DNA of 64,000 nt from Octopus vulgaris (Eukaryota): assembly GCA_951406725.2 (NCBI GenBank), contig OX597822.1, positions 11,284,001 to 11,348,000 of the forward strand, given 5' to 3'. The notes under the pieces were generated by a model. It ran no database searches and had not been told where the DNA came from. It saw only the letters and a program-made list of their open reading frames with translations. Position numbers and translations under genes: made by a program. Of this stretch, positions 1,376 through 52,177 are shown piece by piece. Positions within the stretch are counted from its first letter, which is position 1, and every line of letters begins with the position of its first letter.

Positions 1376-1774
1376 GATTATAGGGAAACGGAGTGTACCA
1401 AAAAGCCATTTATTGTCACATCATAGTGGGCGTGGAACGACGCAATATACCCAGATGCAACACACAGTGCAAAGAAGACATCTCATGTGTATAATATGCT
1501 TGTAAATGCGGAAGTTTACATTTCAGTTTCGATGCAGTTCGGGTGGATATGTTTAAAAAAAACCCCGTCCACTCGAAATGACAGAATCTCTCAATACAAT
1601 TGTTTAAGGATGTTGAACAAACTACCCATGTTTCCAAAAGTGAATTATTAAAACTCCCAAAATCCCTGTCAAACACGGCTATGATGCTCCCCTACTGCTT
1701 CTGCTCCTGATCAGAGATGCACATATCGTCAGCCACTAAGGGACATGGTCAACTGGTTAAGGTCAAACAATAAT

Positions 1775-2150
<376 letters not shown>

Positions 2151-2217: not shown

Positions 2218-3500
<1,283 letters not shown>

Positions 3501-19170: not shown

Positions 19171-19990
19171 TCAGGTCATCCCATAAGTTCTGTCCGATTT
19201 TACCTTTTTTTAAGATTGAATGAAATTTAATAGTATTTTAGAATGTCTAATTGAATTAAAAATTATTATTATGCATTTGTGTACATTTAAACTAACTAAA
19301 TATTATTTTACAGAATAATAGAATTAAAATTTCTATGACTAAAACGCTTTCTAACATGGAAGTATCCGGCACATAATGCTTTATGACTACAAAAAAGGAA
19401 ATTCTGCAGCCGAGGCGACTCGAAACATATACTCAATTTATGGAAAAGAATGTTTGAATGAAAGAACTTGCAAAAGATGGTTTGCAAAATTCAAAAATTG
19501 GAAATTTCAGCCTTGAAGATAAAGATCGAATAGGGCGTCTAGATGAGTTTGATAATAAGCTCTTTGAGGCATTACTTGAAGAAAATCGTGCATTATCAGT
19601 TAAAGAATTGGCAATAAAGATTAGTTCAAACCATACAACTGTTCATCGTCATCTTCAACAACTAGGAAAGGTTCCTAAACTTGGAAAATGGGTGCCTCAT
19701 GAATTGTCAGAAAGCAACCGCAAATCCCGAGATGACATCTGCTCTTCTCTGTATTGTCGCGAACTCATTTCACCCTTTTTGGATAGACTTGTGACTGGAG
19801 ACGAAAAATGGATCTTCTATAGAAATATTAAACGACGTAAACAGTGGCTTGGTAAAAGGGGAAAAGCTCAACCACTACCGAGAAGGGAACTTCATGGGAA
19901 AAAGTTGTTTTCTATATCTGGTGGGATTGCAAAGGAGTAATTCACTTTGAATTGTTACCACCTAATGCAACAATCAATGCTTAAGTCTAG
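19171..19990 (+). mobile_element. Mariner transposon, 3'-truncated
   Basis: TA + TIR TCAGGTCATCCCATAAG; transposase with WVPHEL and TGDEKW motifs. Confidence 0.9.
19356..19990 (+). pseudogene. Frameshifted mariner transposase (includes ORF 19458..19940)
   Basis: RHIMLYDYKKGNSAAEATRNI..., LGKWVPHELSE..., LVTGDEKWIFY, WWDCKGVIHFELL. Confidence 0.85.
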
Positions 19991-20285
19991 TTGCGTTAAT
20001 TATTGGTTGTCGCAAATTGTCACATTACATGTATATATATACAGTCTTTGGTATATATATACAATACTTTGACAGCAAAAATTAAAATGGATTTTTTATA
20101 CATCTCAGAATATTTTAAGTTGAAGGCGAGAATGTGTTGTTACTAACCTGTTTGTTTTAGCAGAAAGGTTGAATTGAGAGAAAAAAGGTTGTACCCAGTG
20201 TGGTGTATACTCCCCTTCAAGCATCAATGGTTTTGGGGTTATCAGGAGGTTAGTATGCCTGCTGGTCAAGCAGTGTCTGTTTGTC

Positions 20286-20318
<33 letters not shown>

Positions 20319-20840
20319 ACAACACACACACACACACACATAGTATACAAACACATATATATGTGTGTGTATATTATATATAAATACATGTTATATTTGT
20401 GTGTTGTGTGTATATAGTATATATGTGGGTGCGTTGTGTGTGTGTGTTCTGTGTGTGTGTGTGTGTGTATGTGGTGTGTGTTTGTATACTATGTGTGTGT
20501 GTGTGTGTGTTGTTGTGTGTGTGTGTGTGTGTATATATGTGTGTGACAAACAGACGCTGCTTGACCAGCAGGCATACTAACCTCCTGATAACCCCAAAAC
20601 CATTGATGCTTGAAGGGGAGTATACACCACACTGGGTACAACCTTTTTTCTCTCAATTCAACCTTTCTGCTAAAACAAACAGGTTAGTAACAACACATTC
20701 TCGCCTTCAACTTAAAATATTCTGAGATGTATAAAAAATCCATTTTAATTTTTGCTGTCAAAATATTGTATATATATACCAAAGACTGTATATATATACA
20801 TGTAATGTGACAATTTGCGACAACCAATAATTAACGCAAC
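19990..20840. repeat. Large near-perfect inverted repeat (~365-bp arms: 19990-20354 / 20477-20840)
   Basis: Arms are reverse complements with only about 2 visible substitutions; mirrored ORFs 20105..20389(-) and 20399..20725(+). Confidence 0.9.
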
Positions 20841-20946
20841 CAAATTTCCAATAATATATTTGTTTTATCCTTTTCTGCCGATTTTTCCAAATATTCTCAT
20901 CACACTATTGAACTTCTCTGTTCCCAAACACTATATTTATACATGT

Positions 20947-25636: not shown

Positions 25637-25713
<77 letters not shown>

Positions 25714-25921
25714 TGTGTCTGTGTTTGTCCCCCTAGCATTGCTTGACAACCGATGCTGGTGTGTTTACGTCTCCGTCACTTAGCGATTCGGCAAAAGAGA
25801 CCGATAGAATAAGTACTGGGCTTACAAAGAATAAGTCCCGGGGTCGATTTGCTCGACTAAAGGCGGTGCTCCAGCATGGCCGCAGTCAAACGACTGAAAC
25901 AAGTAAAAGAGTAAAAGAGTA
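25499..25921 (+). mobile_element. SINE family A
   Basis: Near-identical to 46813-47214, with internal (TA)n(TG)n. Confidence 0.9.
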
Positions 25922-29839: not shown

Positions 29840-31744
29840 AAAGAGAAAGAGTGTGAGCCATGGCCGAAGGGTGCAAAATTTGTGTTCTTTCAACCGAGTC
29901 AAGACGTAGAACAAGACCTGATCAAGCAAAGAGAAATTAGGAACTGATGCATGACAACTATTTTAATAGTCTGGCATCGAAGTACATGTTTTATGAATGT
30001 AAGAATTACTGTTAGATATTTTGGGGCGGCTTTTATATTTGGGTTTGTGCTTACCTTAGTGCAACAGTACGGCCATGAGGTGAGCGTGGAGGACCTCCAT
30101 TTCCTGGTAACCCAGATAATCACAAGGCTATCTCTGGGTTGTACCTAAGAAAAGAGCGGAGGAAGAAATATTGAATCTGATAGGGAAGAAGGCCAGGTGG
30201 TACACGTTTGATAGTAAATACTATATGTAGGCCTTCTGCAAAGATCTGTTTTTGATTGAAGACAAAGGGAAATCGAAAAGAAGTGACAGGAGGATATGAG
30301 ATAGGATCAACGAAGCAGTTGGTGGAAAAAGATCTAAAAGCGGGTAAATCTAATATTGTACTAATAGGAGAGAAAAAGGGGAACACCAATGGACCCTAGA
30401 AGATGAATGGTTTTTGGAAACAGTAGCTTCAGTCCATTGACAATTAAACAAGAGCTGTTTAAGAGATGGCTTCAAAACTTGGACTAGTTCTGAGGACTCT
30501 ATGTACAGAAGATGATCAGAAAGTAACTGGATCGAAATAGTAAGAGCCATGATTTTAATTAGGCGGTGGATTTTCATCTCTTTGTAAGACGGTTGCCTTT
30601 GGCACTAAATTTATAACTATTTTCAATATTTTGCGTTTTTGCCACATTCGCCATTAATCCATTTGTAGGACACCTTCTTGGAAATTTAAGATCAATAACA
30701 ATACGTATTATTGTTGTGGTTATTTCGTGTTTGCAGTGGAATGTAGTATTTATAGAATTTAGAATGTCATTTCTCACGTATTACGTAATGAAATAAGCTG
30801 TATTCTTCGTTTTATATTCGGGACAACATAAGACATCGCTTCGAGAAATTGAACCTTTAATATTTTTTTCAGGTAGAAAAATGTCTGTCTTGAAAATTTT
30901 TGCCTATGTATATTTCCATCATAGTGTCCTTTGAAACTTTGTTCATATTTCAAAATAGCCACACTGCTGGTTGTAGGAAGAAACATACATCACAATGGTA
31001 CAATAACTTAAACACAATCTTTAGTGTTTCAAGAGTGTGACCAGATTAAAATCGATGTAACATAATATCTAAGCAAACAGATATTTTCAAGGACAAGCAT
31101 TAACTTAAAACAGTACAAAAAAGCAAAGGGCTCCAATCTTCAATATCTATGGAAGAAACTGTAAAATAGTGAAAGCTTCAGCAAGTGGCAGCAAATCCGC
31201 GTAACTTAAAAAAATCTTTAGAGAAATGTAGTTGTCTCTTGTGTTCCAAACACTAGAGAGAATTTTTACGTGACTAGAATGAAAAATTAGAAAGAACCCT
31301 GTCTCGTCTTGAGTAACATGATCAGAGCAGAACGCACAAATGCGTGAGTTAATTATTCAAATCCGAGGTTCAAGAGAGAGGTTAAGCAGAATCTGAGCAT
31401 TGCAGGGCTCTCTACAGGGTGGTACTACAACATATCTCGAGGAAAATCACAACGAAGAGATTCAAGACGTTGGTGATAACGTAACACATAGGGGTAGATG
31501 GTGGCGTGAATATGACCCGAGTTAAGATGCAGTCTGTAAGACACCCAGGTCCTGATACCTCTCAACCATATTACTAACTCAGAGTAAGCCCAATAGAGAG
31601 AACGTGAAGGTTTTCTTTTCAGTAGAGCTGGAAAGATAGTGAACGAGAGAAGAGAACAACAACAACAGCAACAGAGATGGTAACAACTAATGCAGTAAAG
31701 GGAGCCTGTTTCTAGCAAGAACCCTCGATAGAAACAGTTCTATA

Positions 31745-31835
31745 TTTAAGAGATGAGGAATTATGTACATTATTTACATTATTTACATTATTTATATTTG
31801 ACCAGTATTTGTCCTCATCTTGCTTGTTGTTAACA
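31745..31835 (-). mobile_element. Family B SINE 3' tail (inverted relative to the 32025 copy)
   Basis: rc of AACAACAAGCAAGATGAGGACAAATA...ATGTAAATAATGTACATAAT. Confidence 0.75.
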
Positions 31836-32024
31836 CCTCCCCCTGTGGGATGAAATTAAAATAATAAACAGAAAATACGAAAACTGAAAGAAGTAGCACA
31901 TATGCTAGGACACAACAACCTCCTAAGCAGACCGAGTGCAGATATGAGCAGCAAATGGGAACCGATATTTAGGAAGGATAGGAAAATATTAGATTTATAA
32001 GCCCTAAAGTTCACACCATAATTA

Positions 32025-32136
32025 CCCACGGGCATATGTCGTAGTGGTTAAGAGCGCGGTCTACTAACCCCATGATTCCGAGTTCATGGGGTTAGTAGCT
32101 CCATGATTCCGAGTTCGATTCCAGGCAGTGACCTTA

Positions 32137-32174
<38 letters not shown>

Positions 32175-32310
32175 CAACAACATCGAAAATGAGAACCCGG
32201 ATTTGAAATTTCCCCGAGACACCTGATGTATATCAGCCGAGACGTTGTGTTAACAATAAACAAGATGAGGACAAATATCCCTCAAATGTAAATAATGTAA
32301 ATAATGTACC
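32025..32310 (+). mobile_element. Family B SINE (HHR damaged by deletion)
   Basis: CCCACGGGCATATGTCGTAGTGGTTAAGAGCG head, (AAT)n, GACACCTGATG-TATATCAGCCGAGACGTTGTGTT. Confidence 0.85.
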
Positions 32311-32677
32311 CTCGCTGGAAACATTACAAATACTTCTTAATAAGAACACAGGAATTTTTCATACAGAGATAGATCTAGGAAATATGCGGGTATGGATATA
32401 CACAATTTCCATCAATTTTTAATGATGCCTGAACGATAAATGAGTAAAGGGGCGTAACCTGTTCGTTGTGGTGGTTCACCTATGAGTGCAAGATAATGGT
32501 GCGTTGTGTCCTTGTGCGAAACACTTCGGCTACGTTGTTCCATTGCGCTCAACTGTAAACGAGTGAGCCTGGTGTGTCGTTCAGGGAGGATGATGTGAAT
32601 TCGGTCACTTAAACGACATGGAAACCGAGCAACCGGCCCTAGGCGTCCCGGGACTTGAAAAGGTTATGTCAAAGGGT

Positions 32678-37465: not shown

Positions 37466-37884
37466 CTTAAACATACTTTGTAAATTTGACTTTACTGTTT
37501 TCAGCCTGAGGTTGAGTCCATGCTAGGTCATCGCCTTTAGTATGACGAGGTTTTTGTTTCCCGTTCACATCCGGGTTTCCCTTTGGAATTGTTTCTGGTG
37601 AAATTGCTAGTTGGACAGAGCTGCTCTTGCTTGTGTTTCCTGTGTTACAAGGTGAATTCATCTGGTATCTCAATGATGGCTTAGCAGGCCGAAACTTCCA
37701 AATCACATATACATGTACACAAGATGCGGCTGAAAGATTGCTCCGATTTCAAAGGTTAATTAAAAAAACAAACACACGAAAATACAAGGAGAAAAAAAAA
37801 CCGATACTCTCCACTCCAGGGTATGAAACCGAAAAAATGGCTTTTAATGAACTTCGTAGAAATACAAAGTTTCTTCAGGCATTT

Positions 37885-38275
37885 ACTCTCTTACTCTTTT
37901 ACTTGTTTCAGTCATTTGACTGCGGCCATGCTGGAGCACCGCCCTTAATCGAGCAAATCGACCCCGGGACTTATTCTTTGTAAGCCCAGTACTTATTCTA
38001 TCGGTCTCTTTTGCCGAACCGCTAAGTGACGTGGACGTAAACACACCAGCATCGGTTGTCAAGCAATGCTAGGGGGACAAACACATACACACACACACAT
38101 ATAAATATATATACATATATACGACGGGCTTCTTTCAGTTTCCGTCTACCAAATCCCCTCACAAGGCATTGGTCGGCCCGGGGCTATAGCAGAAGACACT
38201 TGCCCAAGATGCCACGCAGTGGGACTGAACCCGGAACCATGTGGTTGGTAAACAAGCTACTTACCACACAGCCAC
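37885..38275 (-). mobile_element. SINE family A
   Basis: rc of 46813-47214. Confidence 0.9.
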
Positions 38276-39100
38276 TTTTTTTTTTATTAAACTTTGAAAT
38301 CGGGTCAACCTTTCTGCTGCAGCCTATATATAATCGTGTGTGTGTATGCACACACATGCATACACACGAATATACACATATAAGCGGCATAAGAGAATTA
38401 TTCACACGTCTTATATGTACTTCCAAAACAACAACAACAACAACAAAAACGAATGAATGCAAATGCGGGGAGACGATGCTGGAGTGTTTCCTTTAGAAGT
38501 GCAGGTCTAGGCAGATATAATAAGGAGGGTAGCAGTTGCCCATGCATCAAATCTTCGCACTCCACTTCCTTAACGTTGTTCAATGGTAAATAGAGATTGG
38601 CCCCAGGGTTGTGACAGGAATTGCCAGAATAAATATTGAAAGCAAAGTTGGAATTCCTTAGGGACCTCAGTTTCATTTATTTTCTCAGAGTTTAGTGCCG
38701 AAGCATTTCACATGGATAATATTACCCCAAGGTAGTAATGGTTTGAAGTCAGAGTTTTAAATGAATTACCTTCTTAGTTGATGAGTTCTCTATACCTAAA
38801 ACATTGCTTTTAAAACGCAGACATACGTCTTTGTAACTTGTAGTGGCCAATGCAAACAATCTCCCCTCTCTACGCCCCTCATGTCCAAGGGAAGGACAAG
38901 GACCAGTAAAGAATAGCACTAGCGCTGTCACAGAATGTAGAGCAACGTTGAAGACAACGCTGAACTGCCTTGGGGACTACAACACCGGATAATTTCGCAG
39001 GGTTTATTCCGTAGCCTTTCTCATCGAAGACAGAGTTTACCCTGTTTTAGATGAACTACCTTTTTTGCTTCAAAGGGAGTCAGTGTACGTAAAACATTGG

Positions 39101-46812: not shown

Positions 46813-47214
46813 AAGCGCAGGAGTGGCTGTGTGGTAAGTGGCTTGCTAACCAACCACATGGTTCCGGGTTCAGTCCCACTGCGTGGCATCTCGGGCAAGT
46901 GTCTTCTGCTATAGCCCCGGGCCGACCAATGCCTTGTGAGTGGATTTGGTAGACGGAAACTGAAAGAAGCCTGTCGTATATATGTATATATATATATGTG
47001 TGTTTGTGTGTCTGTGTTTGTCCCCCTAGCATTGCTTGACAACCGATGCTGGTGTGTTTACGTCCCCGTCACTTAGCGGTTCGACAAAAAGTGACCGATA
47101 GAATAAGTACTAGGCTTACAAATAATAAGTCCTGGGGTCGATTTGCTCGACTAAAGGCGGTGCTCCAGCATGGCCGCAGTCAAATGACTGAAACAAGTAA
47201 AAGAGTAAAAGAGT
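46813..47214 (+). mobile_element. SINE family A, full-length reference copy
   Basis: A box GTGGCTGTGTGG, B box GGGTTCAGTCCC, internal (TA)(TG), LINE-like tail, (TAAAAGAG)n end. Confidence 0.92.
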
Positions 47215-50659: not shown

Positions 50660-51030
50660 ACATTCTGGTCTCCAAACAACACCAAAGCAACGTGAAAGGA
50701 AGTGTTTAGCTGCAAAGTACAACATGCTTCCTGGTCCGGGGATCGGACCCACGATCTAGCGATCGTGAGTGCGACATTCGAACTCCTACGCTACGTATCT
50801 TCTTTTTCTAAAGCTAAAGTTACCTTCTCAAGTTATGCCTACTCATAAGAGCCGATTGCCCGGTTCCCATGGCTTATACATCCCTCTCACCTGGATGGAA
50901 CGCCAGTCCGTCGCAGGATTAACTCATTTTTGCCAGCTGAGTGGAAGGGAACAACATGAAAGGAAGTGTTTTGCTGGAGAATATAGCGCAAAGTCCGGTC
51001 CAGGACTCGAAACCACTAAGCCACGCGCAT
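50660..51030 (-). mobile_element. Two diverged tRNA-SINE fragments
   Basis: Repeated AACATGAAAGGAAGTGTTT..GC..A.TA.A.C motif; GGAACGCCAGTCCGTCGCAGG body. Confidence 0.6.
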
Positions 51031-51174
51031 CCCTCCACGCGTATCCACCCGCACGCGCATCCACCCCCACGCGCATCCATCCCACGCACCTCTCCCCCAC
51101 GTGCCTTCACGCAACGTGTCTCTACGCAACAAATTTCTCCCGCACCTACCCTCGCGCTTCCCGTTGCGCGCCTG

Positions 51175-51251
51175 CCCACGGGCATATGGCGTAGTGGTTA
51201 AGAGAGCGGCCTACTAACCCCAAAATTCCAACTTCGGTTCCAGGTAGTGAA

Positions 51252-51349
<98 letters not shown>

Positions 51350-51368
51350 CAACAACAACAACAACAAC

Positions 51369-51412
<44 letters not shown>

Positions 51413-51575
51413 CAACAACAACATGGGAAAATACCTTAGGAATGAGAACCCAGGTTCGAAATTTTCCCAAGTCACCTGATGAAGGCTGGATGGTATATCA
51501 GTCGAAACGTTGTATTAACAACAATTGTGATGAGGACAAATAACCGTCAAATGTAACTAATGTAAATACTGTAAA
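51175..51575 (+). mobile_element. Family B SINE, most complete copy (tRNA head + (AAT/AAC)n + HHR tail)
   Basis: A box TGGCGTAGTGG; microsatellite 51255-51422; HHR 51471-51516; tail ATGTAA.TAATGTAAATA. Confidence 0.88.
51471..51516 (+). ncRNA. Minimal type-I hammerhead ribozyme motif
   Basis: GTCAC CTGATGA A GGCTG-gatggtatat-CAGTC GAAA CG TT GTATT. Confidence 0.75.
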
Positions 51576-52177
51576 TAATCCGTCGTAGGATCACTCATTT
51601 AGAAGCAGATGAACAGTAGCAATGTGAAATGTAATGCTTCATTCAAGAACGCAGCGAAACCAGTCGCCCGACCCGCGAATGGGAATCGACGATCTTGCGT
51701 GCCACACCCTGACTGACCTCGAGGCCACGCCGATCTACTCTTTGTACCACTGGGCAGAACGATTTATTTAACAGATAAACATTTCTGAAGTAAATATAGT
51801 GAAACGAGTAAAGGCCATTGAATAGAAAAAGCTTATAAATTTCTAAAGGGAAATTGCAGAGAAGAGAAATGGAGAGAAGAAACCAGACAATGGAGAGTAA
51901 GCATCGCAGTAGAAGAGAACGGAAAGGAAGCTCTATGAACGCTAACAATGGCTAAAGATCTTCAGTGTGTCTACTTTTAGATGAACAAGTCAATACCGTT
52001 GACCAGAGCTACCATGATATTACGAAAATATAAGATATTTTGAAGAAGATGCTAATGTGAAAAGGAGATGACGTAACCGACGACGACATCAAGAATCGGC
52101 CATCTTGTGTCGGATTTTTCCAGTCAACGCAGAGAGATAGCTGGACTTGCATTATGTCAGCATTATGAAAACATTTG

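Follow-up and report, generated by a model that had tools for sequence, protein, structure and literature searches.

The repeat that recurs in this microsatellite-rich stretch of octopus DNA (the window, 64,000 nucleotides at G000:C9:11284001-11348000 of a 2.8 Gb genome) raises the question of whether a tRNA-like head, an (AAT)n tract and a hammerhead ribozyme form a short element of their own or belong to something larger. A preliminary description of the window had counted about five copies of one architecture, interpreted as a chimeric SINE. Head, AAT/AAC tract, hammerhead and ATGTAAATA tail are indeed co-linear at 51173-51579(+) and 32025-32309(+), where the described architecture is borne out. 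The other three positions read differently: the forward head reported at 3136-3500(+) is absent, a partial head lying inverted at 3091-3137 instead; the head at 1775-2150(-) is represented only by head nt 35-82; and the tail at 31745-31835(-), counted as a separate copy, is the inverted arm of the 32025 insertion (31735-31836(-)). The window therefore holds about three insertions, whose parts are as follows.

51173-51256 (+): tRNA-derived head of the pLTR, A box at 51187-51197, B box at 51231-51241
51174 (+): G, predicted Pol III start, positioned from the family's 5'-end pile-up
51255-51423 (+): (AAT/AAC)n tract within the pLTR
51422-51579 (+): pLTR tail, equal to the 5' coding end of the ORF, ATG at 51442-51444
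51471-51516 (+): minimal type-I hammerhead, core and palindrome intact, helix I with 3 of 5 pairs
51511/51512 (+): predicted hammerhead cut
31722-31735 (+): left copy of a decayed 14-nt target-site duplication, matching 32309-32322 at 12 of 14 positions by eye
31735-31836 (-): inverted pLTR-tail arm with the 30-nt extension (about 31735-31765)
31834-32000 (+): Penelope ORF 3' end (C-terminus of the GIY-YIG domain), broken, stop codon at 31998-32000
32001-32024 (+): 24-nt spacer from ORF stop to head, weak hairpin with the head start
32025-32137 (+): tRNA-derived head with an internal inverted duplication
32138-32309 (+): AAT tract and pLTR tail, hammerhead with a 12-nt deletion
32309-32322 (+): right copy of the target-site duplication
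3091-3137 (-): inverted partial head (nt 34-82), AAT tract at 2880-3090 next on the minus strand
3138-3500 (+): (AAT)70 and pLTR tail, no forward head, hammerhead at 3395-3440 with broken palindrome
1770-2149 (-): partial head (nt 35-82), AAT tract and degenerate tail

In the copy at 51173-51579 the B box is mutated, and the tail lacks the 30-nt extension, stopping at the earlier of the two sites where 3' ends fall. The insertion at 31735-32309 is flanked by the direct repeat with 12/14 matches, and its two arms, 31735-31836(-) and that at 32025, enclose the 3' end of a Penelope ORF (31834-32000, 88% to ORF nt 2110-2312), which had been overlooked earlier. The segments at 1770-2149(-) and 3091-3137, given the private variants that they have in common, are likely to be parts of one complex insertion.

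The repeat unit as the pLTR of a Penelope element

Head, AAT tract and tail together constitute the pLTR of a Penelope/Poseidon-type element, since the end of its ORF runs into the head, the tail runs into the ORF, and the encoded protein resembles RT–GIY-YIG proteins. In the window, the 190 nt 5' of the 32025 head translate as the ORF end, with the stop 24 nt from the head. Among genomic loci picked by the ORF end, 29 of 30 run into a head, and 29 of 30 reach 50 to 1,500 nt upstream into the RT frame; loci picked by the ORF start carry the tail directly in front in 25 of 30 cases, and one locus (L162) is a partial tandem of the form ORF3'-pLTR-ORF-pLTR. The order of the element is ORF stop, 24 nt, tRNA head, (AAT)n, ATG, hammerhead, tail and rest of the ORF. 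The reading frame starts at the ATG 5' of the hammerhead, and in a natural copy (L164) no stop interrupts the frame between the pLTR ATG and the far side of the hammerhead; this copy matches the homologue P0009 at 46% over 127 aa, with the hammerhead-encoded peptide included. In 134 of 141 copies, length differences in the variable ATGTAAATA unit come in multiples of 9, so that the reading frame is kept; slippage alone would give the same steps.

The single ORF comprises about 835 codons (RT plus GIY-YIG), and the column majority of 48 ORF copies is open for 783 codons. Its RT domain, of PLE type, matches PF00078 (E 1.4e-10), and the homologue profile matches TERT chains. The GIY-YIG C-terminus is similar to P0025 across the PF01541 region of that protein (36% over 151 aa, E 3e-25); a direct Pfam search of the family's ORF gave no match to the GIY-YIG domain, and an endonuclease profile match was obtained to endonuclease II (E 0.006). 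The similarity to an Anolis protein (P0087) extends at 37% over 569 aa, near gap-free across the RT–EN linker, and the element would thus differ from Neptune/Nematis in having no extra Zn-finger linker between RT and EN. Head-less sister families, such as those from which P0001-P0016 come, are 54-68% identical. A single-sequence structure model reached a pLDDT of 32, too low to be informative. When the genome was searched at the protein level for a second Penelope family, all 30 fetched loci came from the family with the pLTR head itself; relatives were not found among viral contigs. Penelope ORFs with pLTR hammerheads also occur in many metagenome-assembled prokaryotic genomes (L249-L289), most likely as mis-binned animal host DNA. 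Separately, five loci (L128, L132, L135, L140 and L147) have a recurrent ORF breakpoint at nt about 384-396, near a stretch similar to the 3' end of the pLTR; RT may have a secondary start there, or switch templates.

The anatomy of the insertions was read from 89 loci, which contain 97 of the 100 exact hammerhead matches encountered first on contig 1. Head-to-head pairs are present at 42 loci, the remainder being mostly single arms, and the 30-nt extension is found on exactly one arm in 37 of the 42 pairs. There are two clusters of 3' ends, at tail positions about 139-158 and 180-185, approximately 30 nt apart. Direct repeats of at least 8 nt (8-15 nt) flank 13 of 36 scorable pairs, against a mean of 0.5 and a maximum of 3 under shuffled pairing, and the insertion sites are AT-rich. 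The pLTRs, partial tandems, inverted copies and 30-nt tail at one end are the marks of a PLE, such insertion features being described for PLEs in the available text of PMC8557442. Head-to-tail arrays of complete units were not seen in the loci inspected. At five further loci (L444, L451, L485, L486 and L487) nearly the same fold-back junction at the tail end is followed by the ORF start; these may be a small derived subfamily or duplications.

The tail carries a minimal PLE-type hammerhead, as had been proposed, which matches the motif given in the accessible part of PMC4209133. Stem conservation was likewise upheld: in an alignment of eight control Penelope hammerheads with two of the family the helices covary (82.8% of cells paired, 27 double changes), and none of 500 shuffles scored as high. 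Of 70 copies selected through their head or ORF, 25 are intact by every hammerhead criterion. Inspection by eye shows a defect in each of the four hammerheads in the window: the 12-nt deletion (32025), a broken palindrome (3395 and 1775) or helix I with 3 of 5 pairs (51471). The suggested Rfam check returned no hammerhead in the window at the gathering threshold, and at E 5 neither a tRNA nor a hammerhead match was obtained on four loci. Across 267 arms there is no 5'-end peak at the predicted cut (tail 91), with two ends at 91 and two at 92; 3 of 102 ORF-start copies begin 1 nt after it, a weak hint. Any genomic footprint of the predicted self-cleavage would hence be weak at best, and the single hammerhead in short copies is probably not cut. 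Cofolding of two hammerhead copies gave no clear helix III dimer.

Derivation of the head from a tRNA, with A and B boxes, is confirmed by end-to-end alignment to genuine tRNAs of the genome, with z scores against shuffles of 8.1 for Gln-CTG, 8.3 for Arg-TCT and 6.6 for Ser-GCT. An origin from tRNA-Asn, which the head had been said to resemble, is not shown by the isotypes sampled, a set without Asn in which Gln, Arg and Ser score best and are not separable. Both boxes are kept in the head, the tRNA stems are not, and there is no cloverleaf fold (z +1.3); ARAGORN reported no tRNA in the window at its default threshold and noise at a relaxed one, and Rfam gave no tRNA match there at the gathering threshold. 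A tRNA profile matches behind the ORF in 5 of 7 of the family's own copies (E 2e-4 to 0.06), and has no match at E below 1 on the sense strand behind 68 control PLE ORFs, these controls being taken from metagenome and genome contigs (75 regions in all with at least 150 nt behind the ORF). The tRNA head inside a PLE pLTR is a new feature; no published tRNA or Pol III promoter in a PLE pLTR was found, and Repbase, Dfam and deposited libraries may hold the family.

Transcription start and the origin of the short copies

For Penelope elements, a promoter within the pLTR is as a rule no more than a presumption. The octopus family has a recognisable promoter type at that place, and its thousands of insertions point to the probable site at which the RNA begins, which makes the promoter question directly testable. 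Of 97 hammerhead anchors, 59 have a head on the same strand within 450 nt, and 38 begin in the tail or the AAT tract or are interrupted. Among 70 head-bearing arms, 59 begin at -1..+22, as do SINE copies that start at their head (base-level calls give 60, including L337, an internal deletion that runs on), none start at -17..-2, two start at -18/-20 and eight beyond -39, so that 11 extend past this wall. Under an estimated background truncation of about 0.0025 per nt on either side the wall is essentially impossible, the sample being the contig 1 matches and the two arms of one pair not being independent. Genome-wide, the head pattern has 3,919 exact matches vs 929 for an equally long spacer pattern just upstream. 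The wall coincides with a T/G step 13 nt 5' of the A box, and 13 nt before the A box is a usual distance for a Pol III start. The concentration of starts at -1..+22, with none at -17..-2, fits Pol III initiation, and the head is probably an internal Pol III promoter, with a Pol III start behind the short copies.

Longer copies bear on the same point. All 81 exact pLTR-ORF junction copies include 10 with a head, of which 7 start at -2..+18, 2 at +31/+37 and 1 runs on; RNAs that had started at the head would appear to have entered the ORF, because these 7 copies begin there. When followed up, the 7 contain only about 12-860 nt of ORF and none is full length. In a partly overlapping set picked by ORF similarity, 4 copies pass the head into upstream ORF vs 2-3 that start there.

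The reading that best accommodates the above is that of a pLTR in an autonomous Penelope element, in which the tRNA segment likely serves as a Pol III promoter whose transcripts give the short copies. At a master locus, Pol III would initiate in the upstream pLTR, 13 nt 5' of the A box, and its transcript would extend into the ORF; the Penelope protein, by analogy with Anolis, would bind the 5' RNA of the ORF, and reverse transcription would begin internally, at the tail sites of the RNA. If primed in the first pLTR, it would copy about 300 nt back to the RNA 5' end and yield short copies; if primed in a second pLTR, it would yield ORF-bearing, 5'-truncated copies. The available text of PMC11167929 reports for the Anolis element that both strands are cut and extended in vitro, that RT begins at two internal sites which define the tail, that ORF RNA beyond the start site is required, and that hammerhead cleavage is dispensable. 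Mobilisation by a Penelope RT/GIY-YIG protein, as suggested in the preliminary description, is in this respect supported. A comparison of 96 short with 45 ORF-linked pLTRs found the commonest letter identical at 202/202 columns; one column reached the Bonferroni level, mainly via gaps, and the frequent variants resemble CpG decay. Given 0/202 diagnostic columns, the short copies are probably by-products of the master RNA; they contain no ORF sequence past the tail and are therefore probably dead ends, not a self-propagating SINE. The notion of a chimeric SINE with a borrowed tail gives way to that of an autonomous element's own pLTR (29/30 loci; 0/202 columns), and the head does not lie outside the partner element, as it would in a non-autonomous lineage.

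Alternatively, the element may be transcribed by Pol II or by read-through, the head being a tRNA-SINE passenger in the 3' UTR at which a hairpin stalls the RT or snaps back the cDNA. This explanation, though rather unlikely, is the most probable of the rivals. It draws on a hairpin that spans -11..+15 across the junction, whose stability of about -7 to -8 kcal/mol places it in the top 7% of ORF windows, on fold-backs in 18 of the 70 head-bearing arms, on 5' ends that are spread over 24 nt with no single-base peak, and on a spacer between ORF and head that resembles an old inverted copy of the head start. However, the equally stable hammerhead helix (-8.3) shows low truncation; ends occur up to the 5' side of the hairpin's loop and cease at -1/0, and the 5' strand of the hairpin (-11..-2) is kept in no arm. 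The wall is also seen in arms without fold-back, 42 of 52 unflagged arms ending at -1..+22, with a flag that misses some fold-backs. Moreover, the two boxes have been kept in the head and the tRNA stems have not.

An independent self-cleaving tRNA SINE, with masters of its own and parasitic on the Penelope protein, is largely refuted and has become a very improbable account. Its appeal lies in the Pol III-type head, in a ratio of short head-to-tail units to ORF-linked ones of about 4:1, in a commonest form without TTTT (19 of 141 copies have one) and in the slightly lower divergence of the short copies (5.9% vs 7.4%). Against these stand the facts that the unit is the autonomous element's own pLTR, that diagnostic variants are absent (0/202 columns), that 7 head-started copies contain ORF sequence and that 5' ends show no pile-up at the cut (positions 91 and 92 account for two each of 267 arms); a template requirement like that of Anolis, which needs ORF RNA past the RT start (PMC11167929, in its available part), also disfavours it. 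A donor SINE with another body was not seen among five tail-less heads, as all five continue into AAT and unrelated DNA, with other repeats in three. Least probable of all is a cut by RNase P at a tRNA-like fold in a longer RNA, which would explain ends clustering near the tRNA +1 position (8/70 at +6) but is opposed by the absence of a cloverleaf fold in the head (z +1.3) and by 18 arms that begin at -1..+5, upstream of tRNA +1.

If Pol III starts at the head, it is conceivable, albeit doubtful, that it reads the whole autonomous coding element of about 3 kb end to end from the captured tRNA promoter, through an ORF purged of TTTT, to give an uncapped mRNA, possibly with hammerhead trimming of its 5' end. 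Such an element would be the Pol III counterpart of R2, which is transcribed by Pol I, and, if true, a coding transposon running on a polymerase thought unsuited to the task. The 48-copy column majority contains no TTTT (synonymous-shuffle mean 2.65, P 0.037; mononucleotide P 0.017), with P 0.27 for GGGG. The ORF copies, 54.5 kb in all, contain 17 TTTT runs vs 64 expected, each common to at most 3 copies, and GGGG is also scarce (16 vs 60 expected). Control PLE ORFs at 83 loci of at least 1.2 kb show no depletion (624 TTTT seen vs 620 expected); none of the 14 controls of at least 2 kb, some of them redundant, lacks TTTT, and the 2 of 83 that do (1.4 and 1.9 kb) have no head. The lack of a common TTTT terminator in the ORF hints weakly at a Pol III able to read the whole element; an ORF free of such terminators is what that reading requires, and its significance in this one family is modest. 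In favour of such a reading, copies that enter the ORF start at the head; against it are the restriction to one family, the scarcity of GGGG as well, and that no full-length copy starting at the head was found. Contigs from four runs and four organisms were compared with one copy, and a single X1 contig spans the ORF end and the head, contigs being unable to show RNA start sites. A related PLE at L183 (WLWD01002751.1; 48% to P0009), with an ORF free of TTTT over 1.9 kb, a T-rich 3' UTR and no tRNA head, is a counter-example for the TTTT argument.

Relation to described elements

The closest described relative is Poseidon of Anolis carolinensis (PAc), which, in the available portions of PMC11167929 and PMC8557442, shares with the octopus element an RT-GIY-YIG ORF, a hammerhead pLTR that overlaps the ORF start, 3' ends at two sites separated by 30-40 nt, copies that are inverted or in partial tandem, and AT-rich targets. 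Relative to PAc as presented there, the octopus pLTR adds a tRNA-derived segment with A and B boxes, an (AAT)n tract and a sharp 5' wall, and the ORF is without a common TTTT. The ribozyme itself, known here from sequence, does not differ from the minimal hammerheads of metazoan PLEs as characterised in the accessible part of PMC4209133: an extra base between 9 and 10.1, the G10.1-C11.1 pair, palindromic 15.2-16.2, a short helix I, and mostly truncated copies, often on opposite strands 100-700 bp apart.

Other systems combine some of these components. A Pol III-type promoter with a type-I hammerhead has already been described in the schistosome elements Sm-alpha/Sj-alpha, which are non-coding tandem units freed by cleavage and for which the portions of PMC6765202 and PMC8490949 available name no autonomous parent; the octopus unit, in contrast, is part of a coding element and gives no clear sign of cutting. 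Similarly, the TRIMp3 elements Cassandra, Helenus and Ajax carry a small-RNA-derived Pol III promoter in their terminal repeat, proposed in the available text of PMC10886601 to stem from a SINE insertion; these are non-autonomous LTR elements whose autonomous partners are argued there to need Pol II, whereas the octopus autonomous element itself has the segment. Non-LTR retrozymes also consist of short hammerhead units from PLE pLTRs (PMC7229834, bioRxiv 10.64898/2026.07.22.740005, as far as their available text goes), but form head-to-tail tandem arrays, while the octopus copies are dispersed singles or head-to-head pairs (42/89 loci) and do not form head-to-tail tandem units that each hold a hammerhead. 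No tRNA or Pol III promoter was found in the available text of these two sources, nor the pLTR-tRNA-head architecture in that of PMC13282606, PMC6962438 and PMC4824008. The octopus family illustrates how a single autonomous element can give rise, as a by-product, to hammerhead repeats that look like SINEs. This route may be relevant to how Sm-alpha-like elements and retrozymes originated, and the case is a warning that such short copies can be mis-filed as SINEs.

Family size and AAT tracts

A single hammerhead 23-mer has 5,415 exact matches in the genome and its reversed control has none; with copies about 6% from the column majority, arithmetic from this count suggests approximately 22,000 arms genome-wide. 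Three arms in 200 kb of evenly chosen DNA extrapolate to about 40,000, with a wide margin. The proposal that the element seeds AAT microsatellites holds for the individual copy, yet the family accounts for few of the tracts: every copy has an AAT tract, and 4 of 5 long AAT tracts in the window adjoin the element, but in the 200 kb of evenly chosen DNA only 1 of 26 does, and 0 of 8 near tRNA genes. Targeting of microsatellites was considered and rejected, with 1 of 47 flanks being microsatellite and the flanks AT-rich (79%).

Other elements are often inserted in the pLTR AAT tract. At L044, L088, L089 and L098, further elements with RT-like coding fragments lie in or beside it, and the tract may be a landing pad that disables copies. 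A different repeat of at least about 545 nt, flanked by (AAT)n, is present at 2327-2860(-) and 1587-1770(-) of the window and at L003, L039, L055 and L092; it often sits within the pLTR AAT tract and is, at a guess, an AAT-targeting non-LTR element or a derivative of one. One motif recurs in both flanks of the 51175 copy (50850-51170 and 51580-51720) and in the flank of L474; the two flanks resemble fragments of another interspersed repeat. Elsewhere in the window, a 373-nt inverted repeat (19983-20355 and 20475-20847, 95% complementary, 119 nt apart) is MITE-like or an inverted insertion pair, and two further inverted pairs, 38009-38276 with 46822-47089 (268 nt, 96%) and 25683-25921 with 37884-38122 (239 nt, 92%), probably represent other young repeat families.
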